Source: an uncultured Candidatus Saccharibacteria bacterium (GTDB lineage: Bacteria > Patescibacteriota > Doudnabacteria > UBA920). From it: a stretch of DNA of 63,150 nt. Positions 3,001-63,150 of the stretch are shown piece after piece. The number at the start of each line of letters is the position of its first letter. Within the stretch, counting starts at the first letter, position 1. Where the stretch lies: the NCBI GenBank assembly GCA_964532005.1, contig CAZHER010000006.1, forward strand, positions 1 to 63,150. Reading direction: 5' to 3'. The notes under the pieces are model-generated. The model was not told where the DNA came from and searched no databases. It was given only the letters and a program-made list of their open reading frames with translations. A program made the translations under genes and the position numbers.

Positions 3001-4484
3001 TCTACTTAGGGCTGATGCTCAACGAAGAGTGGGATGACTTTAGACAAGGTAAGTCGGTAGATATAGAAAGCTATTTTTCCGGAGAAAAACTAGATTTCAT
3101 TCAAGAATTTATGAGAAGCCGGCAAGAGAAGAGCAGTCTTACCCCTGAGAATTTAGGGATTCAACCAGATCAAATGGCAGAGTTCCAAGCAATTTTACAG
3201 GATGAAATCTTGTCCCAAGTAAGGGGAAATGTTGAAACTATTGATTTGAAACTAGGGACTGTAATGAGAAGTATTGAAGATTTGTCCGATGAAGATATCT
3301 ATCAAGACGATCAAGAAAAAGCGGTTTTTAAGTTTACGCAGGAGCATGGGTCTTTAACTGGAAAAGTCTTAGCAAAATTGTATCAGCAAACCTCTGGCAA
3401 AAAGGATGCCTTTTGGACTGAAGAGGAGAGCGAGGTAAAAGACGGTCTACGGAGAATTTTTAAGATAGAATCTTGGAGTACAGAGAACATCAAGTCAGTT
3501 CAAGACAGCGTTAAAACTCCAGGGCTGGTAACAGGAATTATCCGTGATATTGAAAATAGAAATATTCCAGACATGGTTAAGGAATTAGAAGGTAGGCTAC
3601 ATCCACCTGACAGTATTGTAGAAATATTTAATCGTCTAGGAGAAGATTTTGAACAAGAGTCTGGAGCGATTGCTTTGAACCAAGACTTAGAATATTTACA
3701 TAACATTATAGTTAAAAATGAAAAGAAGCTTACACCAGAAGAGAAAGCCGACCTTGTAAGTTATTTGGATAAGATTGAGGAACAGATGGCAGTTTTAGAA
3801 AAGACGCTGGAAGATATTAAGCAATCATTTTTGAAAGTGAGCAAGTCTGCTCATACTCAAAATAATGAAATTTTACAGGATCGTCTTAAAGAAATTGAGC
3901 GGATAATTAATTCTGACAATACCTCAACTGTTATTAATACCAGAATGACTAAAGACATGAACCTGGTAATTGAAAATATGAGACAATGTCTGGGTTGTTT
4001 AAAGAAAGAAGTTAATAATGATACAACTTTGACTTTCGGCGATTCAAATAAGTTTTATCTGATGAGTCAGGGAAGCAGGGAAACAGGGAGCGTTGCTGAC
4101 CAAATAGTGTTCTTAGATCAAGTGGAACACGAAAATGGAGAGAAAGAAATGTCTTTTATCGTTGACCGCTTGTACGGAATTCGCTCAGCAGATGTTTTAA
4201 GCAGCAATGTAGTGGCAATTCACAAAAAGTATAAGTTGTTAAAACAGAGATTTCCAAATGCCAAGATAAGCATCGTCGTCACAGATGCAGCTCTAACAGG
4301 AATAGATAAGCAGTCCGTGATTAGTACATTAGAAAAAAACAGCGGTGGCGCAGTTAACGCAGTCCACGAGCCAAAAATAAATGTAAATATTTCCGCATCC
4401 GCAGCAGCTGACCACTATATAGAATTTGGCGGGGGAGCAAGGATTACTGGTTCTAGAGAAGTCGCCGGACTGGTGATACGTTAA
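24..4484 (+). CDS. Very large hypothetical protein (>=1486 aa), probably 5'-truncated by the window edge
   Basis: Long ORF. The frame is also open from position 3 to 23 (KKLESDP), so the true start may lie upstream of the window. Acidic/helical composition, with a C-terminal region carrying RQCLGC, DRLYG and DHYIEFGG. No family recognised. Confidence 0.85.
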   Translation: MGVVQDFHAELKHRKDKGMSEYPLINDYEFRRKLEEKLVEIFETKLESDLDEALDFYKQLGGKEISYQVKERLGKWADHNQDREEELKEKILEFPGLAYDLLYQRSYSGRNFYKPEDLVVVAESALDKGDEEGINKCMQALRKEHMLILSQNEGIRKKIFDYLLENDYLDKISDNFEFFREDFEGLPKYKKETLIGKMYETKGSLLYNLRDVIALNETQKRAIADSWFMQGTYYKILDRDNIDFFDISQKTVDAALRICLEKDLGGTLEHYVKTSGVKLTEKQRTESLATLRERKKYELILKRDVIDALDLDRSTVERVFAEFIEIVKSSYGSNFTEDDPEKDQYRRSFELVETSAIPPEAMALLNQLKIENSGYHPLLQEQLKKHISGDNPFFAYQRLNIISGSMHEGLDFRHVYQSKKFGQLVKQDPEQARAVAGKVTKHQWLLHHEFQFSDFLVSDDILNQIEEGMQNFPKMHLSRRNLESLLEKPQNTVRTAELITKFRELSLNSHREIVDYLLEKGDGAESSIKFLEALHAKVDRIPEKFVPYMKLVDSNPESLDAVLEIVDKSPMLFTSHEVYKTIIGYGNFRAGFMIEHPNESNYINELRDLVNRVGTQIKFSFDDLDTAESEMNEHQKEEYYDYVVDRIKLGYAGENIDFVDITRVAGMMGRLTKEQQQKAILKLESLSMPERASYRMISSPVEELNEQNWKQVLAVYIAIGGEDRTYHSPEVTNSIKALFSEEQTENKEFCLQKIREQWLTYLENPEQGFPYDAAVIGDTVEEYEGAGPLKYIESLSGVIHEMKEIAKSGQIPDRTKDEIVAGLKMLEERFSKEKWSEEDRAAFYNLSKDVIKAAPSLFSKFTELFSEFDPKSLKTFNRDNFPLYQAELVTLQNRDTWSEEIKYSPKELVEFRRIIENLIKDLRSAEKGEQRGILFEHKSKSLDRIQNNFKERFGLEKIPEEFGPEKIRGIQNIIRYMGNINDRDADKENKLTFYLGLMLNEEWDDFRQGKSVDIESYFSGEKLDFIQEFMRSRQEKSSLTPENLGIQPDQMAEFQAILQDEILSQVRGNVETIDLKLGTVMRSIEDLSDEDIYQDDQEKAVFKFTQEHGSLTGKVLAKLYQQTSGKKDAFWTEEESEVKDGLRRIFKIESWSTENIKSVQDSVKTPGLVTGIIRDIENRNIPDMVKELEGRLHPPDSIVEIFNRLGEDFEQESGAIALNQDLEYLHNIIVKNEKKLTPEEKADLVSYLDKIEEQMAVLEKTLEDIKQSFLKVSKSAHTQNNEILQDRLKEIERIINSDNTSTVINTRMTKDMNLVIENMRQCLGCLKKEVNNDTTLTFGDSNKFYLMSQGSRETGSVADQIVFLDQVEHENGEKEMSFIVDRLYGIRSADVLSSNVVAIHKKYKLLKQRFPNAKISIVVTDAALTGIDKQSVISTLEKNSGGAVNAVHEPKINVNISASAAADHYIEFGGGARITGSREVAGLVIR

Positions 4485-7267: not shown

Positions 7268-7855
7268 ATGGGTACAACACTAGCCTCTTTAGAAGTAATT
7301 TTATCTTCAACTCAAAAAACTGCACTTCTGGCATTTTTGATGGTTGCACCAGACAGGTATTACTCTGTATTGGAGCTGTCCCGCCGAATTGGTTTGTCAG
7401 GCCCAACAGTCTCTGCTTTGTTGACACAGTTTTTGCGTGACGGGCTAGTAAAAACCGCCAGTAGATCTAGAGCCAAGGTTTATGCATTTAACTCGAAGCA
7501 CCATTTGGCAGGTGATATGAAAATCTGGTTGAAAAAGCACGGCCACAAATATGAAGATGAGCTTTATACAGCAGTGTCCAAAGTAGGGGAAGTTAAAGCA
7601 GTTTTTCTTTCCGGTATTTTTTCCGGACAACCACAGCTCCCAGTAGATATACTTATAGTTGGAAAGGTCAATTTGCCAAAACTAGATACCTTCCTTCAAC
7701 AGTGCGGAAAAATGATGGGAACGGAAATCAATTACAGCATTATGTCTGCTGATGAATTTAAAATCCGGCGCGATACCTTTGACCGGTTCATAAAAGATAT
7801 TTTCGATTATCCACACATAACCGTCATGGATAAAATTTCCAAAAAGACGGAATAA
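7268..7855 (+). CDS. Winged-HTH plus nucleotidyltransferase-like domain protein (CPR-type putative regulator)
   Basis: N-terminal HTH (YYSVLELSRRIGLSGPTVSALLTQFLRDGLV) and C-terminal MNT-like segment (AVFLSGIF..PVDILIVG..EINYSIMS). Confidence 0.7.
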   Translation: MGTTLASLEVILSSTQKTALLAFLMVAPDRYYSVLELSRRIGLSGPTVSALLTQFLRDGLVKTASRSRAKVYAFNSKHHLAGDMKIWLKKHGHKYEDELYTAVSKVGEVKAVFLSGIFSGQPQLPVDILIVGKVNLPKLDTFLQQCGKMMGTEINYSIMSADEFKIRRDTFDRFIKDIFDYPHITVMDKISKKTE

Positions 7856-9317: not shown

Positions 9318-12300
9318 ATGAACAACAGTGTAATTGCAAACTTAATAGGTTTGAAATCCAAGGTTGCTTCCCGCATGAGCTGGAAAACTGGAGGAATTTT
9401 GCTTGCCGCTTTGGCTGCAATATTGGTCCTGGTTCCACGCTCTGGTAGCTTTACCAAAGCGGAAAGCTGTCCAAACCCTCCTGGCCACGCCGTATTAAAT
9501 TACTGGCCGGTCAGCTTTGACCAGTCTCAAACTGGCTGTACTGATTTTACCACCTTAGATGGTAAAATTGTTGGTACTCCTCGATATTCCACTAGCCAAG
9601 CAGACCACGATGATGGTTTGCAAGTTGCTGATGGACAAGAAGTATATATGCTTGCTTACGTTCACAACGGAGCTGCTGTAAACGGTGATCCAAACCAGAC
9701 TACAGCTCGCAACGTTCGTTTTAACGTGCAAATCCCTACTTCCGCTGGTTCTGATCATACTATCAACGCTTCATGGCGCGGTGACAACACTAATACTGCT
9801 AGTGGAAGTTTTACTTTGCATACTCCTGCAAACCGCACTGTTGAATTGGTTCCAAACAGCGGACAGTTGTTTGACGCTTTCGGAAATCAGATTAGCTCCG
9901 GAATTGACTTGAGCTCAGGCTCTTACACTTTGGGTGACCAAACTGCTTGTTTTGAATATGCACGTTTCTTGCGCTTCAAAGTTCGCATGGGAAACCCTCC
10001 TGGAACACCTGCCTTGACTATTACCAAACAGGTTCGCAATGTTACTCAAAATGGAACTTTCTCCGGATCTGCCAACGCAATTACCGGAAATACTGTTGGT
10101 TACCAAATTAAAGTTAAAAATACTGGAACCGCCCCTGCGCTAGCTACAACTGTTCAAGACAACGGCACTCCAGGTACTACATATGTAAATGGAAGCCTTC
10201 AGGTTTCCAACGGTGGTACTGGCAGCGGTATTCCTGGAACTATTACTTTGGGAACATTAGCTCCAAATGAAGAGGTTACTATTACTTACAGCGCCACTGT
10301 AACTGGCGGCAACGGTACGTACACCAACACTGCAACTGCACAAGCAACTTCAGTTCCTTCTGTGAATGCTAGTGCAACCGTAACTGTTACCAATATTCCT
10401 ACCAGCGACAATGCTGAATGTATCTCTGTTTCATTGAACCCTCAAAGTCCATTCGATGCCGGACAAAGTTTTACCGGTACTGTTCGTGTACGAAACAACG
10501 GCACAACCACTTGGACTTCTGGCACTTACTCTTTAGGCGCTCAGCCTAATGACAACCGTTGGGGTGTTGACCGTGTAAATCTTGTTGGTACCGTGCCTCC
10601 TGGCGGCGAAGCAACATTTACTATTTCTACTCAAGCTCCTTCCACCCCCGGAACTTATAGCTTTGGTTGGCAGATGGTAAACGGAAACACTTACTTTGGT
10701 CCTGTATGTTCTACCCCAGTGGTAGTCCGTACTCCCCCCGTTACTACTGACAATGCAGAATGTGTAGCCGTAAGTTTGGCTCCAGCATCCCCTTTGGATC
10801 CTAACCAAGGGTTTACTGGCACTATAAAAGTGCGCAACAGCGGTACCACCACCTGGGTTCCTGCCAACGGATATGCTTTAGGTTCACAAAACCCAGCTAA
10901 TAATACTACTTGGGGAACCAACCGTATTTCATTGCCTATTTCAGTAGCTCCTGGACAGGAAGTCATAATGAGTATTAACACTCAAGCTCCTGCAACCCCT
11001 GGAACATATAATTTTGCTTGGCAGATGGTAAAGAACGGCAACTTCTTTGGAGCCACTTGTGCCACACCAGTTGTAGTTAAGACACCTCCTGTGTTAACCA
11101 ATGATGCACAATGTATTGCTGTAACCTTAAACCCTGCTTCTCCTTTTGATCCTAATCAAGGGTTTACTGGCAGTATTAAGGTTCGCAATATTGGTACTAC
11201 CACCTGGGTTCCTGCCAACGGATATGCTTTAGGTTCACAAAATCCACAGGACAACAATACATGGGGAACTAATAGAATTGCTTTGCCTTACTCAGTTGCT
11301 CCTGGACAGGAAGTCATAATGAGTATTAACACTCAAGCTCCTGCAACCCCCGGAACTTACAGCTTCGCTTGGAAAATGGTTCAGAACGGCAATTTCTTTG
11401 GCCCTACTTGCGAAACTCCTGTTGTAGTTAAGACACCTCCTGTGTTGACTGACAACGCAGAATGTATTGCTACTACTTTGAGTCCAGTAGGTCCTTACAG
11501 TCCGAACCAAGGATTTATTGGAACTATTCGTGTTCGCAACAGCGGTACCACCACTTGGGCCCCCGGAACTTATGCAATTGGTTCTCAGAACCCACAGGAC
11601 AACACTACTTGGGGTACCAACAGAATTACTTTGAACTCTTCTGTAGCCCCTGGTGGTGAAGCAACCTTTACTATTTCTACCCAAGCTCCTGCAAATGCTG
11701 GTACTTACAGTTTTGCATGGCAAATGGTTAAGACCGGCGCTTTCTTCGGTGCTGTATGTCAAACCAACGTAGTTGTTCAGAATGTGGTTCCTCAAACCAC
11801 CACCTTGTCTATTACTAAGTATGTTCGCAACCTTACTGACAACACCAGTTTTGAAAAAACTGTAAATGCAGATAACGGTGACCGTGTACAATATGAAGTA
11901 AAAATTCGCAACATTGGCGATATTACTGCCAACGATGTGATTATGACTGACAACGGTACTTCTGGCACATCTTTTGTAAGCGGTTCCATTGAAATTACCG
12001 GAACCAGCAACTTGTGGTCCGGAACTATTCCTGGAACTTTGAACCTTGGCAATTTGGCCAAAGGCGCTGAAATCACCATTCGCTACACAATGACTGTAAC
12101 TGGCGGCAACGGTACTTACACCAATACCGCTACTGCTGATGCTTCTAATACCGCAAGCGTATTCGATACTGCTCGCGTAGTTGTTGACCAAGGCTGTACT
12201 TCAAATTGTGGTGGCGGAGGTGGTGGAACTTCCCGAAGATTGTCAGTGGACAAGTTGGTCCGCAACCTGACTACTGGTACCTCTTACAGAGATACCACCA

Positions 12301-14486: not shown

Positions 14487-14834
14487 ATGCCATTAGATTT
14501 AAGTTCAGCCTTTTCATCGATGGGTGCCGCAGGACACCATATTTACAGCCACGGCCATGTTGCCGGAAAAATAACCGAACACGGCCATGTTCTAGACAAG
14601 ACTGGCCATAAAGTTGGAACCATTGGTCATGACGGCACTTTATGGGACAGAGCGCATCACCGTATTGGCCATGTCGGCGCAGACGGCAAAGTATACAATA
14701 AATGGAGTAGTCATGCTCAAGTTATGACCAGTGGAGATAGTATTTTAGACCATAGTGGTAAAACCATTGGCCACAGTAGCGGAGGCTCTCTAGGGGGAGC
14801 AGCTATGCTTTTGATGCTTAATAAAGATATGTAA
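14487..14834 (+). CDS. His/Gly-rich small beta-repeat protein (beta-flower-like), hypothetical
   Basis: Repeated xDxxGxxxGxI-type units (VLDKTGHKVGTI, LWDRAHHRIGHV, ILDHSGKTIGH) and a GGAAMLLML end. TATAAT lies 6 nt before the ATG. Confidence 0.7.
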   Translation: MPLDLSSAFSSMGAAGHHIYSHGHVAGKITEHGHVLDKTGHKVGTIGHDGTLWDRAHHRIGHVGADGKVYNKWSSHAQVMTSGDSILDHSGKTIGHSSGGSLGGAAMLLMLNKDM

Positions 14835-29408: not shown

Positions 29409-29474
29409 AAGTTGAGCATAACAAAAAATACCTGCAAGTAACAGGTGTTTTTTCAAATATTAATAACTATTGCT

Positions 29475-29762
29475 CTGTCTTTCAAACGAGACAAGATCAC
29501 CAGACTGCTTTCCAATCCAATTTGTTAAGGTCTATTCCAATTCAGTGGTGAACTCTATCAGGGAGATCACGAACCCATTGTCTTAAAACAGTTATTCGAT
29601 ACTGTTCAGAAAGTCCTCAAAGGCGAGTCCAGACCTCACAAACAACCTACAAACAAGCCCCAAGCCCTTTGTGGCTTGCTAGCTTGTGGTGAGTGCAATC
29701 GAGCGATTACTGCAGAAGTAAAGATAAAGACCCAACAGAATGGTAAAAATCTTAATATTTGA
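29475..29762 (+). pseudogene. Fragment of a large serine recombinase (recombinase domain end and Zn-ribbon start)
   Basis: Manual translation: LSFKRDKITRLLSNPIC*GLFQFSGELYQGDHEPIVLKQLFDTVQKVLKGESRPHKQPTNKPQALCGLLACGECNRAITAEVKIKTQQNGKNLNI*. It matches the LxNPxYxG..GxHEPI..FxxVQ..L.GLxxCGxC pattern. In-frame TAA at 29526, no start, truncated. Confidence 0.8.
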
Positions 29763-31030: not shown

Positions 31031-31105
31031 TGGTAGCGCCACGGGGAATCGAACCCCGGTTCCATGGATGAGAACCATGTGTCCTAACCACTAGACGATG
31101 GCGCC
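31031..31105 (-). tRNA. tRNA-Glu(CTC)
   Basis: Reverse complement GGCGCCATCGTCTAGTGGTTAGGACACATGGTTCTCATCCATGGAACCGGGGTTCGATTCCCCGTGGCGCTACCA; cloverleaf, anticodon CTC, encoded CCA. Confidence 0.96.
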
Positions 31106-60640: not shown

Positions 60641-60714
60641 GGGGGCGTCGTATAATGGTAGTACAGCGGTCTCCAAAACCGCTTGCGTGGGTTCGATTCC
60701 TACCGCCCCTGCCA
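60641..60714 (+). tRNA. tRNA-Trp(CCA)
   Basis: GGGGGCGTCGTATAATGGTAGTACAGCGGTCTCCAAAACCGCTTGCGTGGGTTCGATTCCTACCGCCCCTGCCA. Confidence 0.95.
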
Positions 60715-60783
60715 GACAAATTCACCCAAGATTATTGGGTGTTTTTGTTTGAGGGCAGAGTAGAATCGAACTGGTGTATAATA
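60707..60783 (+). repeat. tRNA-Trp-anchored direct repeat, copy 1
   Basis: CCCTGCCAGACAAATTCACCCAAGATTATTGGGTGTTTTTGTTTGAGGGCAGAGTAGAATCGAACTGGTGTATAATA; about 73/78 identical to copy 2. Confidence 0.92.
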
Positions 60784-60788
60784 AGCGT

Positions 60789-61346
60789 ATGCCCACAAAA
60801 TACATATTAAATGGTGGCTCTAATATTGATAGCCCAGAAAAGAATAACAACGAATTTTATTCAGAAATTTTGAAAGATGCACCTATGTCTTTAAAAATAT
60901 TATTGGTTATGTTTGCTAATGAGAAGGAACGATGGGAACCAAAGACGGAGAGGGTTATATCTGAATTTAATCAAAACACTACCACTCAAAAGCTTTCATT
61001 CGAAGTTGCTAACGAGGAAGATTTTATAGAGCAAATTCAGAAGTCAGATGTTATATATTTTGCTGGAGGCAAAACTGTGAAGTTATTAGAAGCGTTGAAT
61101 CGTTTTCTCGATCTAGGCAAGTATCTAAACGGCAAGATTGTTGCTGGGGAATCAGCCGGAGCAAATATTATGGCTAAATATTGCTATAGTCCTAATGCAG
61201 ATAAAGTACTTGAAGGATTGGGAATACTAACAATTAAGCTCATTGTGCATTATCAAGAAAAATATAAAGGTAAGCTTGATGCTGTAGGTACGGAGCTTGA
61301 ACTTGTTTTATTACAAGAGTATAAAAATAAGATTTTTCAAGCATAA
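60789..61346 (+). CDS. Type 1 glutamine-amidotransferase-like / peptidase S51 family protein
   Basis: YILNGG, DVIYFAGGKT, IVAGESAGA and EGLG..VHY motifs. ATG 60789. Confidence 0.8.
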   Translation: MPTKYILNGGSNIDSPEKNNNEFYSEILKDAPMSLKILLVMFANEKERWEPKTERVISEFNQNTTTQKLSFEVANEEDFIEQIQKSDVIYFAGGKTVKLLEALNRFLDLGKYLNGKIVAGESAGANIMAKYCYSPNADKVLEGLGILTIKLIVHYQEKYKGKLDAVGTELELVLLQEYKNKIFQA

Positions 61347-61349
61347 TAT

Positions 61350-61871
61350 ATGCTACTAGTAGTTGTAAATGATAAAGATGAAGTAATTGGCTCCAAAGAC
61401 CGAGCAGAGGAAAATAAGGATGACATTACTCGTGTTGCGGGGCTTTGGATTATTAACTCTAACAGCGAGATGTTGATTGCCCAAAGGTCGTTTAACAAAG
61501 AGCACGATCCAGGGAAATGGGGTCCAGCCGCTGCTGGTACTGTCGAAGAAGGGGAAACTTATATCTCCAATGTTATTAAGGAAGCAGGAGAAGAACTGGG
61601 AATTACAATCAAGGAAGAGCAATTAATCACAGGTAGTCATAAATTTAGGGAAACAAGCCATAAATATTTTAGTCAATCATTTATCGTCAAGTTGGATATT
61701 CCTATTGAGGACTTTACGATTCAAAGAGTAGAAGTAGAAAGTATTCGCTGGGTTCCAATCGAAGAATTAACTTTATGGATTAAAGAAAAGCCCCAAGATT
61801 TTATAGCGTCATTTCCTGATTCGTTTGAGGGACACAAAGATTTAATTAATAATTTGATAATTGGTAAATAA
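61350..61871 (+). CDS. NUDIX hydrolase (IPP isomerase type 1-like)
   Basis: VVNDKDEVIG, LIAQRS..K..PGKWG, GTVEEGETY..KEAGEELGI motifs. Confidence 0.85.
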   Translation: MLLVVVNDKDEVIGSKDRAEENKDDITRVAGLWIINSNSEMLIAQRSFNKEHDPGKWGPAAAGTVEEGETYISNVIKEAGEELGITIKEEQLITGSHKFRETSHKYFSQSFIVKLDIPIEDFTIQRVEVESIRWVPIEELTLWIKEKPQDFIASFPDSFEGHKDLINNLIIGK

Positions 61872-61891
61872 TTCTAACATCCTCTACCACG

Positions 61892-61969
61892 CCCTGCCAG
61901 ACAAATTCACCCAAGTTTATTGGGTGTTTTTGTTTGAGGGGCAGACAGGAATCGAACTGGTGTATAATA
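61892..61969 (+). repeat. tRNA-Trp-anchored direct repeat, copy 2
   Basis: CCCTGCCAGACAAATTCACCCAAGTTTATTGGGTGTTTTTGTTTGAGGGGCAGACAGGAATCGAACTGGTGTATAATA. Confidence 0.92.
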
Positions 61970-61974
61970 TTGCT

Positions 61975-62841
61975 ATGAATAATAAGCGCATTACCGCAAC
62001 CATTGTACTCATTTTTGCATGCTTAATTTGGGGCTCATCCTTCTTTGTAACTAAGGATAGTTTAAATGGCGTTGCACCGTTAACATTTTTAACTTTCAGA
62101 TTTCTTATAGCTACCGGTGCTACTGCGATAATAGCTTTGTTTCTTAAGAAGAAACTGTTTGATGATTGGCCGATAGGTTCCGCTTTAGGGGTGATTTTAT
62201 GGCTCTGTTATCTAACTCAAACAATAGGACTTCAATATACCACACCTTCTAACTCTGGCTTCATCACCGGGTTATTTGTTGTCTTTGTGCCGCTAATTGC
62301 CTTCATTCTAAATAGTCGAATACCAAAATATTTAGATATAGTGGCAGTAGTACTTTCACTTGTCGGTTTGTATATTCTTACTGGCGGGCATGATGGAATA
62401 AACAAGGGTGATCTAATAACGATTTTCGCCGCCCTAACACAGGCAATTTATATATTAGTTGTGGGGAAATACTCAAAAGATTCTATTGATCCCATTAGAG
62501 CTCTTTTTCAGCAATTCTTTGTTATGACTATTTTAAGTTTTCTTGCAGCTGTTCTTTTAGATGCTCCTTTATCAATTTCTAATAATTCTGTTTGGTCAGC
62601 TTTAATATACCTGGCCATTTTCCCTTCCACCGTAGCTTTTTTAATTCAATTGTACTCTCAGAAGCTTGTGCCAGCTTTCCAAACATCAATGATTTTAACT
62701 TCTATAGCACTCTTTGCCGCAATGCTTTCTTGGTTATTTCATAAAGAACCCATCACTGTTCATGGGGTTATGGGAGGCCTGTTAATGCTCATAGCGATGG
62801 TTATGTCTCAATGGAAGAATCACGCATATCAACAAGAATAG
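61975..62841 (+). CDS. DMT/EamA family transporter
   Basis: IWGSSF, RFLIA, GLQYTT..NSGFITGL and two EamA halves. True ATG is 61975; the track extension runs through the repeat. Confidence 0.92.
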   Translation: MNNKRITATIVLIFACLIWGSSFFVTKDSLNGVAPLTFLTFRFLIATGATAIIALFLKKKLFDDWPIGSALGVILWLCYLTQTIGLQYTTPSNSGFITGLFVVFVPLIAFILNSRIPKYLDIVAVVLSLVGLYILTGGHDGINKGDLITIFAALTQAIYILVVGKYSKDSIDPIRALFQQFFVMTILSFLAAVLLDAPLSISNNSVWSALIYLAIFPSTVAFLIQLYSQKLVPAFQTSMILTSIALFAAMLSWLFHKEPITVHGVMGGLLMLIAMVMSQWKNHAYQQE

Positions 62842-62873
62842 TCTAAATATCCTTCACTATACTCTGCCAACGT

Positions 62874-63150
62874 ATGAATCCAATAATCATTTTAATACTG
62901 GCTCAGCTACTGTTCACTATCAGCGATCTGATAGGTAGGAAATACATGTTGTTGTACGGCTTCAATTTACAAGCCTTCTTTTCCTTATGGTTTTTTTGTT
63001 ATTTTGTATTACGTATGGTTGCTATGTTCGCCCAACTTTACATCTTCAGTAAACTCGAACTTGGTGCAACTATGGCTTTGTTTGGTGCCGTGTCAATTAT
63101 ATTGGCCAACTTGCTAGGACTCCTTTTACTAAAAGAAATACTCACAGCCA
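62874..63150 (+). CDS. Small DMT/SMR-like membrane protein, 3'-truncated by the window (missed by the ORF track)
   Basis: MNPIIILILAQLLFTISDLIGRKYMLLYGF..LELGATMALFGAVSIILANLLGLLLLKEILT; open to the window end. Confidence 0.75.
   Translation, partial: MNPIIILILAQLLFTISDLIGRKYMLLYGFNLQAFFSLWFFCYFVLRMVAMFAQLYIFSKLELGATMALFGAVSIILANLLGLLLLKEILTA

Follow-up and report, generated by a model that had tools for sequence, protein, structure and literature searches.

Patescibacteria (CPR bacteria) have very small genomes, and to our knowledge few mobile elements have been described for them; gene gain in this group is therefore poorly understood. Our literature search found no paper on tRNA-linked islands in Patescibacteria. 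Here we ask whether the DNA downstream of a tRNA-Trp gene in one such genome gains genes as discrete units, and which sequence marks those units. The window is the 63,150-nt contig CAZHER010000006.1 of an uncultured Patescibacteria bacterium, and the related loci compared with it are designated by L-numbers. An earlier note on this DNA had proposed that a repeat of about 78 bp, anchored at tRNA-Trp, delimits and drives accessory gene cassettes. The following features define the locus.

60641..60714, + strand: tRNA-Trp(CCA), the anchor of the array (ARAGORN; Rfam tRNA, 62.1 bits)
60707..60798, + strand: repeat copy 1, the tRNA end with the trailer of the S51 cassette (core 60707-60783, extended by further homology)
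60789..61346, + strand: Peptidase_S51-family gene, gene 1 of cassette 1 (Pfam E = 6.6e-13)
61350..61871, + strand: NUDIX hydrolase gene, gene 2 of cassette 1 (Pfam E = 3.2e-16)
61892..61999, + strand: repeat copy 2, a duplicate of the S51 trailer ahead of DMT (core 61892-61969; 1-nt and 15-nt insertions)
61975..62841, + strand: EamA/DMT transporter gene, cassette 2 (Pfam E = 5.6e-37)
62874..63150, + strand: small membrane-protein ORF, the next unit of the array, running off the contig end (gene call in L001)

The tRNA-Trp gene is intact according to both ARAGORN and Rfam, and cassette 1 follows it directly. The tRNA-Trp of L005 is 100% identical to it. The pair of direct repeats that the earlier note had placed at 60707-60783 and 61892-61969, with about 73 of 78 positions identical, was recovered in full: global alignment gives 73/78 identical columns and one 1-nt indel. 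The parts ascribed to each copy (tRNA end, hairpin, inverted fragment, and a box 6 nt before the ATG) are likewise present, and Pfam confirms the S51 and NUDIX genes between the repeats and the DMT gene after copy 2. Copy 1 begins with the final 8 nt of tRNA-Trp, CCCTGCCA. When a 15-nt indel in copy 2 is allowed, the homology reaches 60798 and 61999 (84/92 positions identical) and enters the S51 reading frame by about 10 nt; DMT codons 6-9 (ATTACCGCAA) align with S51 codons 1-3 plus one base (ATGCCCACAA). The longest exact run common to both copies does not exceed 24 nt. With up to 3 mismatches allowed, the window has exactly two occurrences of the first 49 nt of the repeat, and 0 of 100 shuffles matched. 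The 78-bp repeat has no further copy in the 63-kb contig, and a search for the exact repeat pattern in JGI metagenomes gave no matches. The repeat as such appears to be private to this lineage. The left boundary of the repeat falls at a motif that is conserved across eight genomes. The right edge of the repeat lies 10 nt inside a reading frame, as in an ordinary duplication, which counts against site-specific exchange.

The surroundings of the repeat were compared among relatives. Upstream synteny (DnaE ... S2-EF-Ts-TPR) is kept in every relative examined, and the gene content 3' of the tRNA array differs in every one of them. The same layout, anchored at tRNA-Trp and carrying differing genes, occurs in at least seven related genomes. 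The earlier proposal of a variable cassette region at tRNA-Trp thus holds: the flank is syntenic, the downstream content differs, and the boundary motif described below has homologues in seven other genomes. Identical gene order in relatives, which would speak against such a region, was looked for, and each relative differs. The DNA downstream of tRNA-Trp appears to be a hot spot that gains genes block by block.

The closest relatives by the TPR protein (83% and 72% identity; also one at 58%) are represented by contigs that stop just past TPR, before the tRNA array. Neither an empty site nor a circular form was found among the contigs searched. Two candidate markers of the ancestral site were given up. 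A HAD gene lies after tRNA-Trp in L005 and deeper in the array in L041; the two proteins are 18% identical and non-orthologous. DMT orthologues were dropped as well, there being no homologue above 44% identity.

The conserved unit of the locus is a 28-nt boundary motif (BM) that resembles a tRNA 3' end and terminates in CTGCCA, and not the 78-bp repeat. Two such sites occur in the window.

61872..61899, + strand: BM1, TTCTAACATCCTCTACCACGCCCTGCCA, directly 3' of the NUDIX stop codon, ending in CCCTGCCA
62842..62869, + strand: BM2 (weak), TCTAAATATCCTTCACTATACTCTGCCA, directly 3' of the DMT stop codon, the second-best matrix match

With a matrix built from other genomes only, BM1 is the best match in the window (34.6 bits; the largest shuffle value is 15.5). 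It is identical to a site in L025 at 24 of 28 positions and homologous to sites in L036, L033, L041, L029, L028 and L046; those of L029, L028 and L046 were detected by matrices built without them. BM2 corresponds to the third tRNA-end-like site of the earlier note. A site is indeed present there, and it is weak: 13-14 bits, which is marginal against shuffled-window maxima of 8.6 +/- 2.8 (largest 15.5). BM2 keeps the same register to the preceding stop codon as BM1, and 20/31 positions match without gaps when counted by eye from the stop codon; an alignment pairs the same columns. Neither a terminator nor an arm was found downstream of BM2.

The 12 strong BMs, found in eight genomes, all lie on the strand of tRNA-Trp, 0.7-3.2 kb downstream of it, and BMs divide the array into blocks of 1-3 genes with unrelated cargo. 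On the opposite strand no BM was found in 384 kb scanned; there was one marginal match elsewhere. In the window, BMs are confined to the tRNA-Trp locus (63 kb scanned). The compared loci were chosen for tRNA-Trp or S51, and the position of BMs in relatives is a statement on those loci. The edges of the motif are sharp: the cargo on the left is unrelated, and the trailers on the right diverge from the first base after CTGCCA. The orientation of BMs is unchanged beside opposite-strand cargo genes in L029, L036 and L041. Since the orientation does not depend on the cargo strand, a DNA-level boundary is favoured over a 3'-UTR element.

Compared with the tRNA itself, the motif is tRNA-like with an insertion of roughly 5 nt that is common across genomes, and its exactly tRNA-identical part is about 6-9 nt long. 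At the distal boundaries of the units, the tRNA 3'-end repeat is CCCTGCCA within BM1 and CTCTGCCA within BM2. Exact tRNA repeats of 15-20 nt occur in L009, L011, L029, L034, L037 and L046, and one of 47 nt occurs in L027. Two scans of viral contigs gave no match to the tRNA-Trp 3' end or to BM, and no phage attP candidate. Core sites of serine or tyrosine recombinases are expected to have dyad symmetry; such symmetry was not seen around the presumed crossover.

The sequence to the right of the tRNA end has its own structure, which we call the trailer.

60723..60751, + strand: intrinsic-terminator-like hairpin CACCCAAGATTATTGGGTG with a T-run (terminator scan, fold)
60751..60771, + strand: inverted tRNA-3'-like (T-arm-like) arm GAGGGCAGAGTAGAATCGAAC; the copy 2 counterpart is 61936-61957
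60775..60782, + strand: extended -10 box TGTATAAT, 6 nt before the S51 ATG at 60789 (from sequence)

Both copies contain CCCTGCCA, and in both the terminator scan flags a 7-bp hairpin with a T-run behind it (60723-60741 and 61908-61926). The sole substitution between the copies within the first 49 nt is at a loop position of this hairpin (A at 60731, T at 61916); copy 2 also has an extra G, and AGTAG of copy 1 is replaced by ACAGG in copy 2. The segment 60715-60760 folds with -16.4 kcal/mol (z = -3.8). The arm, together with the T-arm and acceptor strand of the tRNA, makes a long imperfect palindrome around the terminator, and the segment 60685-60790 folds with -45.9 kcal/mol (z = -6.6). The arm (..AGGAATCGAA..) is also present 3' of the tRNA-Trp terminator in L009, L011, L015, L029, L034, L036 and L037. 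In relatives the inverted fragment forms the 5' arm of a small structured element. That it might be left over from a convergent tRNA or tmRNA was considered and rejected: neither ARAGORN nor Rfam, also at permissive E-values, detects a gene of this kind in the window, L009, L011 or L015.

The box TGTATAAT recurs in copy 2 at 61961-61968, again 6 nt before an ATG, that of DMT at 61975. A -10 box so close to the ATG suggests a start of the leaderless type. At about ten other genes of the window a -10 box, perfect or nearly so, stands 6-9 nt ahead of the ATG, so that TATAAT-6 nt-ATG is the usual gene start of this genome and no device of the cassettes. The claim that each unit insulates its cargo by a terminator and expresses it from a promoter is not sustained, as both elements are generic in this genome.

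In the window, L041 and L046 alike, the S51 gene keeps its trailer (..GGGTGTTTTTGTTT..GAACTGGTGTATAATA..ATG) upstream. This left-end trailer of the S51 cassette makes up most of the repeat, and copy 2 is a secondary duplicate, through which about the first 10 coding bases of S51 have come into the DMT gene. The 78-bp repeat therefore does not stand as the recurring unit: only its first 8 nt (CCCTGCCA) lie within the conserved boundary motif, and the remainder is the upstream region of S51 itself, conserved in L041 and L046 and duplicated once before DMT. What survives of the cassette-accretion reading is the variable hot spot and the recurring boundary sites; the repeat as a unit and the device that drives and insulates the cargo fall away.

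The cassettes of the window have a G+C content of 0.34-0.37, compared with 0.41 for the window, and the cassettes of the array are about 0.65-1.5 kb long with 1-3 genes. An S51 orthologue lies directly after tRNA-Trp in L041 (69% identity) and downstream of tRNA-Trp after a short intervening piece in L046 (59% identity). In L046 the trailer of S51 follows this short intervening element and a 15-nt tRNA repeat, and the position of S51 in the array therefore differs. The NUDIX gene is missing from the S51 cassettes of L041 and L046. A NUDIX-S51 fusion protein occurs elsewhere (P0189). The closest homologue of DMT anywhere is 44% identical, and neither NUDIX nor DMT was found in the sampled related loci. 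The small membrane-protein ORF at 62874-63150 has no Pfam match. In relatives the cargo varies widely and is for the most part a single gene; it includes His phosphatase, C39 peptidase, APH, HD_3 and several hypothetical proteins.

No recombinase gene was found in or beside the array in the DNA examined of the window, L041, L046, L029 and L036, in a screen for large serine recombinases. Three or four relatives have large serine recombinases (Resolvase + Recombinase) near tRNA-Trp. The gene of L010, encoded on the reverse strand, runs into the 3' end of tRNA-Trp, and L018 has a fragment of a recombinase of the L010 type. The gene of L023 lies 1.4 kb downstream of tRNA-Trp, and that of L037 lies 0.23 kb downstream, its 3' end overlapping tRNA-Glu. 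A zinc ribbon was found in the recombinases of L010 and L023 and not in that of L037. The window itself retains one trace of such a gene.

29466-29744: decayed homologue of a large serine recombinase

No tRNA-Glu 3'-end repeat was found around this decayed gene. No BM was found in the recombinase-bearing loci L010, L023 and L037, and the link between recombinase and BM is therefore circumstantial. Given the serine recombinases of relatives and the decayed homologue in the window, it is plausible that a recombinase acts in trans.

On balance we consider it somewhat probable that the locus is a tandem array of small recombinase-less cassettes built at the 3' end of tRNA-Trp. A cassette would consist of a left-end trailer with a terminator hairpin and its own promoter, 1-3 cargo genes and a right-end 28-nt BM, which would imitate the tRNA-Trp 3' end and finish in CTGCCA. 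Circular cassettes would integrate site-specifically at CTGCCA, where the tRNA or an earlier BM ends, and each integration would restore the tRNA and push older cassettes downstream. Restoring integration that shifts older units is the route by which tandem islands targeted to tRNA or tmRNA genes are formed. The recombinase would be supplied in trans, the best candidates being large serine recombinases. The repeat, the BM family with its fixed strand and position, the variability of the cargo and the trailer specific to S51 are observed; the integration of circles, the exact point of crossover and the identity of the recombinase are the parts of this model that we infer. In favour of the model, the trailer behind the tRNA and the one behind BM1 are 94-100% alike in the window and likewise in L041, and the window and L041 differ from one another. 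The repeat pair might have arisen in two ways. An S51-NUDIX cassette may have been re-inserted from a closely related strain beside a resident copy of the same trailer, behind which the S51 gene had already been replaced by DMT. Alternatively, unequal recombination between the tRNA end and BM1 may have duplicated the cassette, and DMT may then have replaced the second copy.

A different origin of the array is conceivable, by local evolution with no dedicated recombinase. BMs would then be relics of one or a few old duplications of the tRNA 3' end, spread within the locus by unequal homologous recombination, tandem duplication and gene conversion, and the 78-bp repeat would be a one-off segmental duplication of the S51 upstream region. 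We regard this as a minor possibility. Such an origin would account for the right boundary of the repeat inside the S51 coding sequence, for the 15-nt internal duplication carried by copy 2 and for arrays that have no recombinase. It also agrees with trailers that are homogenised within a genome and different between genomes, the stretch common to the trailers of one genome being 37 nt in L041 and 78-92 nt in the window. Two boundary-type sites of L029, one of them a full BM and the other with a 30-nt insertion, also resemble each other over about 32 nt on their upstream side, as expected from duplication of a larger block. However, BM and its insertion of about 5 nt are conserved even though the S51 proteins are only 59-69% identical between genomes, and BM stands beside unrelated cargo with sharp 28-nt edges. 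Moreover, duplication alone leaves the presence of unrelated foreign genes between the sites (DMT, best homologue 44%) unexplained. That the repeat is instead an assembly artefact, in which two strains or loci were wrongly joined where coverage was low, appears extremely unlikely. The k-mer coverage of the contig is only 1.43, and a Logan contig stops inside copy 2, which would suit an artefact; but the copies differ at 5 positions and by indels, with no exact run above 24 nt, a Logan contig recorded separately has the same NUDIX-BM1-copy 2 junction, the S51-NUDIX-DMT order is found in three contigs of 50-200 kb, and homologous architecture occurs in the unrelated assemblies L041 and L046.

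The other readings concern what the boundary does. In integrons, the complementary R'' (RYYYAAC) and R' (GTTRRRY) boxes of attC flank an imperfect palindrome. The locus could be an integron-like platform, with tRNA-Trp as the primary insertion site and BM plus hairpin as a folded attC-like site, joined in S51-type trailers by the inverted arm, which a recombinase would recognise. The size of the cassettes (about 0.65-1.5 kb, 1-3 genes) is that of integron cassettes, and BM, directly after stop codons, opens with TTCTAAC, which matches the inverse core RYYYAAC at 6/7 positions. The S51 trailer of L046 has the exact complement GTTAGAA about 85 nt from the BM position in a circularised cassette, and the junction of tRNA end, hairpin and inverted arm is a long imperfect palindrome (z = -6.6). 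This palindrome is, however, restricted to S51-type trailers, and no GTTRRRY partner follows BM at 12/13 junctions; within 170 nt of the BM start, the search for GTTRRRY or the exact complement gave one chance GTTRRRY, at offset 135 from a BM of L029. We therefore rejected the reading of BM as an integron attC site. Neither an integron-type nor any intact integrase was seen beside the array, each cassette has its own promoter, and the platform as a whole is improbable. A role at the level of RNA is very improbable: BM and the terminator would mimic the tRNA-Trp end, transcripts would be trimmed to a stable ...CUGCCA 3' end, and the repeat would be conserved for expression and not for recombination. 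The terminator-like hairpin is always 3' of BM on the tRNA strand, BM often abuts a stop codon, and the pairing of the terminator is kept despite differing sequences, all as such a module would have it. Yet the orientation of BM is constant beside opposite-strand cargo, the 63-kb window has BM at the tRNA-Trp locus only, and the variable gene content would go unexplained.

Arrays of self-promoted minimal cassettes with a conserved boundary recur at tRNA-Trp in several lineages, and they point to a concrete and testable mechanism of gene gain. Genomes of Patescibacteria can be searched for a signature, namely BM and then a hairpin on the downstream side of tRNA-Trp. Should a recombinase be matched to BM, the two would form a compact system for site-specific integration at a defined tRNA target. 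A broader view, which we hold only tentatively and as rather doubtful, is that of an undescribed integron-like capture platform carried by Patescibacteria, with tRNA-Trp as the insertion site, a conserved 28-nt tRNA mimic plus hairpin as the recombination site of the cassettes, and a recombinase encoded elsewhere that shuffles self-expressed, leaderless cassettes of one gene each. If true, it would rank among the chief ways in which these reduced genomes gain genes.

Several known systems resemble the array. Integrons and CALINs string together cassettes of roughly 1 kb, most of them with a single gene and of unknown function, and have a structured site at the stop codon; integrons have the IntI tyrosine recombinase, attI and the Pc promoter at their head, and their cassettes have no promoter of their own. 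The array shares with them small cassettes, a repeated structured site at the stop codon and the expectation that new cassettes lie beside the anchor. Unlike integrons, it has a tRNA-gene anchor, no IntI was found at this locus, no R''/R' pair is present, and its head is L33 followed by tRNA-Trp in place of IntI, attI and Pc, with cassettes that have their own -10 boxes. Staphylococcal SCC composite islands at orfX/rlmH are tandem cassettes at one chromosomal site with short direct repeats, and pseudo-SCC elements without recombinase genes depend on the large serine recombinases CcrAB from another element. Tandem cassettes at a single site, short direct repeats and the lack of a recombinase in some cassettes are common to SCC and the array; SCC differs in its target, the 3' end of a protein gene, in its size of tens of kb and in unrelated site sequences.

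The Tycheposons of Prochlorococcus are islands of a streamlined genome that adjoin tRNA genes. Full and partial tRNAs mark their borders, serial integrations push older elements inward, and degenerate remnants are left; the elements are multi-kb and carry replication genes and integrases, which are tyrosine or large serine recombinases (bioRxiv 10.1101/2020.12.28.424599). The streamlined genome, the islands adjoining a tRNA and the partial tRNAs at borders are shared, whereas the array has minimal cassettes only and a distinct conserved 28-nt motif. Among known systems, the nearest are tandem tRNA/tmRNA island arrays, for example the ssrA islands of Dehalococcoides. These lie in tandem downstream of a single small RNA gene and are bounded by a short direct repeat of the 3' end of that gene, with a conserved motif not derived from ssrA just upstream of each repeat and a CcrB-like large serine recombinase on the reverse strand beside attL; some of the islands have no integration module and are read as cis-mobilisable (McMurdie et al. 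2011, PMC3146451). The left part of BM is comparable to the motif upstream of the ssrA repeats, and the recombinase of L010 is also on the reverse strand beside the RNA gene. In contrast to Dehalococcoides, the target is tRNA-Trp and not tmRNA, the lineage is Patescibacteria, the units are far smaller (0.65-1.5 kb, 1-3 genes), those of the window, L041, L046, L029 and L036 have no integration module, and BM is exactly identical to the tRNA over only about 6-9 nt. The array would be best described as a variant of the tandem tRNA/tmRNA island arrays already known.

Relatives were compared through orthologues of the TPR protein whose gene lies shortly before the tRNA array (their loci and contigs carry L numbers below). 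The block DnaE ... L25-PrmC-RF1-L31-S2-EF-Ts-TPR is kept across relatives, and the gene content past the tRNA array is different in each genome compared. The earlier note had proposed cassette accretion at tRNA-Trp, against which the same gene order downstream of this tRNA in relatives would speak. The opposite was found, and accretion is supported at the comparative level. The exact tRNA-Trp 3' end of the window also occurs in MAG loci labelled Doudnabacteria, Saccharibacteria, Buchananbacteria or Patescibacteria.

The tRNA cluster as a whole is a hot spot of rearrangement. Protein-coding genes lie between tRNAs of the Thr-Tyr-Thr-Trp array (L004:10861-12671, L005:10905-11954), and in L009, L011, L014 and L015 the tRNA-Trp block has the opposite orientation to the rest of the array. 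The contigs L003, L006, L039 and L040, which include the two closest by TPR identity, stop 34-53 nt past the TPR gene, before the tRNA array. These shared stops fit strain variation or repeats breaking assemblies at the locus. On the minus strand of L016 a second tRNA-like sequence directly follows tRNA-Trp, ~100 nt on, with a ~55-nt GC-rich insertion in the anticodon-loop region.

The window spans a complete metagenome contig of a Patescibacteria bacterium (ENA ERZ15185866, NODE_119; 63,150 bp; k-mer coverage 1.43). Its features at the locus are as follows.

60641-60714, tRNA-Trp, preceded by tRNA-Thr, tRNA-Tyr, tRNA-Thr and the L33 gene
60707-60783, copy 1 of the direct repeat
61872-61899, BM1, a 28-nt boundary motif (BM) resembling the tRNA-Trp 3' end
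61892-61969, copy 2 of the direct repeat
62842-62869, BM2, a weak boundary motif

The two direct repeats are real: the copies are identical at 73/78 aligned positions and carry the elements described for them. In each, CCCTGCCA is accompanied by a 7-bp hairpin and T-run, a tRNA-like stretch in inverted orientation, and TGTATAAT, which ends 6 nt before an ATG. Peptidase_S51, NUDIX and EamA/DMT genes flank the copies. No further copy was found in the contig, and shuffles gave 0 matches. If a 15-nt insertion is allowed in copy 2, the homology extends to 60798/61999 (84/92 identical) and pairs ATGCCCACAA of S51 with ATTACCGCAA (DMT codons 6-9). An assembly artefact is an unlikely source of the repeat, because the copies differ, their longest common exact run is at most 24 nt, and other sequence records show the junctions too. 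Elsewhere in the window, near-identical ~60-nt coding stretches (..GGTACCACCACCTGGGTTCCTGCCAACGGATATGCTTTAGGTTCACAAAA..) at 10820-10910 and 11170-11260, 351 nt apart, are probably tandem domain repeats in one protein.

The unit of the system is not the 78-bp repeat, as had been claimed, but the 28-nt BM, which is found in eight genomes. BM1 (TTCTAACATCCTCTACCACGCCCTGCCA) starts right behind the NUDIX stop codon and adjoins copy 2 on its left. It is identical at 24/28 positions to a site downstream of tRNA-Trp in L025. Further relatives of BM1 downstream of tRNA-Trp are the following.

L036, two
L033, one
L041, two strong and a weaker third

With a position matrix trained without any window sequence, BM1 was the top match of the whole window (34.6 bits; shuffled-window maxima 8.6 +/- 2.8, largest 15.5). 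BM2, the third site of the earlier note, was second-best at 14.0 bits, below the largest shuffle maximum of 15.5. Successive matrices found sites in L029, L028 and L046, none of which was in the training sets. The final count was 12 strong BMs in 8 genomes, all 12 on the tRNA-Trp strand and 0.7-3.2 kb downstream of the tRNA. Among the 384 kb scanned there was no BM on the opposite strand and one marginal match elsewhere; within the 63-kb window none was found outside the tRNA-Trp region.

Both edges of the BM are sharp. Unrelated cargo lies beyond the left one, and beyond the right one lie hairpin-containing trailers that differ from the first base past CTGCCA. BM orientation is unchanged where a cargo gene sits on the other strand. 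In our alignment all BMs have in common ~5 bases that the tRNA-Trp 3' end lacks, which suggests descent from a common BM and not from independently decayed tRNA ends.

Three genomes have an S51 gene downstream of tRNA-Trp, arranged as follows.

Window: tRNA-Trp, trailer, S51, NUDIX, BM1, duplicated trailer, DMT, BM2
L041 (S51 69% identical to the window): tRNA-Trp, trailer, S51, BM, 37 nt, APH gene, further BM-bounded units
L046 (S51 59% identical to the window): tRNA-Trp, terminator, ~95-nt piece, 15-nt tRNA repeat, S51-type trailer, S51, BM (41 bits), two small genes, BM (26 bits), HD_3 gene

All three have a homologous trailer in front of S51 (..GGGTGTTTTTGTTT..inverted arm..GAACTGGTGTATAATA..ATG; trailer alignment A5), so this trailer belongs to the S51 cassette. 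Copy 2 of the window is a secondary duplicate of the S51 trailer, with the first codons of S51 carried along. In L041 the 37 nt after the BM are identical to its own tRNA trailer. Trailers after the tRNA and after the BM are 94-100% alike within the window and within L041, with differences between the two genomes; this implies unequal recombination, gene conversion, or an exchange that took place recently between close strains. A 315-aa protein (P0189) has fused NUDIX and S51 domains, and at L043:8001-9863 the neighbours of S51 are an EamA transporter and a nucleoside 2-deoxyribosyltransferase. These arrangements raise the possibility that S51, a nucleotide-handling enzyme and an EamA exporter share a functional link and are not cargo acquired independently.

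The repeat had also been regarded as a dedicated device that insulates and expresses its cargo. This is not borne out: terminator plus promoter is the normal gene-start architecture of the organism, because a perfect or near-perfect TATAAT stands 6-9 nt before the ATG of ~10 other window genes (for example starts at 7268, 13473, 14487, 22523, 29008, 34904, 42442, 51966, 53990 and 55212; clear at 14487, 22523, 29008, 34904 and 42442) and intergenic terminator-plus-promoter modules recur in relatives. Many of the TATAAT-headed window genes have no Shine-Dalgarno sequence, suggesting widespread leaderless transcripts. A second trailer type, AAAATCGCCG....GGCGGTTTTTTGTTATGCTTTAAC..ATG, also terminator plus promoter, lies between variable-region genes of several genomes in several copies per genome (L005:12518-15591; L041:3606-3643, 4170-4211; L046:4398-4440; L012 after tRNA-Trp).

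The inverted fragment was considered as a convergent tRNA/tmRNA remnant, and this was rejected. The arm in the window, together with the 3' half of the tRNA, makes up a long imperfect palindrome (z = -6.6) that encloses the terminator. The same arm (..AGGAATCGAA..) stands behind the tRNA-Trp terminator in seven relatives, where a ~100-nt structured element separates this terminator from a second tRNA-Trp 3' end.

L009:413-520
L011:3302-3397
L015:1199-1321(-)
L029:8503-8609(-)
L034:1054-1157(-)
L036:4187-4321(-)
L037:7584-7688(-)

A covariance model search added a core without arms at L037:188-306(-). Helix P1 is invariant, the inner helices P2 and P3 have compensatory changes (in seven sequences only), and the loop UCGGAG is conserved. 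The element had no match in Rfam and may be either a gene for a small RNA or an integrative element of minimal size.

There are no recombinase genes inside the arrays. Large serine recombinases occur close to tRNA-Trp in several relatives, and the window has a decayed one.

L010, reverse strand, large serine recombinase, 3' end overlapping the tRNA
L018, fragment of the L010 kind near tRNA-Trp
L023, large serine recombinase 1.4 kb downstream of tRNA-Trp
L037, large serine recombinase 0.23 kb downstream of tRNA-Trp, 3' end overlapping tRNA-Glu
Window 29466-29744 (+), decayed large serine recombinase gene with an in-frame stop, without the N-terminal catalytic domain

The decayed gene has 33-36% identity over 78-96 residues to the L010 and L023 recombinases and lies 1.3 kb from tRNA-Glu(CTC), 31031-31105 (-); the tRNA-Glu 3' end was not found repeated around it. 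For the array, we infer both the recombination mechanism and the enzyme.

At L027:2431-3960 (-), tRNA-Trp is followed by one 395-aa gene, which by our reading of its sequence resembles RtcB, and by an exact 47-nt tRNA repeat from the anticodon stem onward, which reads as a classical att duplication around a single gene. In another Patescibacteria lineage (L048:501-700), two tandem units of 58 nt come after tRNA-Ala, with an S51 gene behind them. Each unit closes with a new tRNA-Ala 3' end, which makes three such ends when the tRNA is counted, and the repeats start in the T-loop; thus the same kind of tRNA-end duplication also occurs at a different tRNA.

An integron identity was rejected, since the R' core is absent at 12/13 junctions (the one match is a chance one), no IntI was found, and the cassettes, in contrast to those of an integron, carry promoters. 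That the array is a dedicated integron-like platform seems unlikely. In the tandem ssrA islands of Dehalococcoides, the 3' end of the RNA gene recurs as a short repeat, each repeat is immediately preceded by a conserved motif foreign to the gene, attL has a reverse-strand CcrB-like serine recombinase beside it, and units without an integration module were interpreted as cis-mobilisable elements (PMC3146451). The anatomy of the tRNA-Trp array matches these islands, with the counterpart of the recombinase being that of L010, and it also resembles tRNA-flanked islands built by tycheposons. The array differs from known islands in that a recombinase gene is missing from every unit seen, in its target (tRNA-Trp), in its lineage (Patescibacteria), and in units of minimal size with their own promoters.
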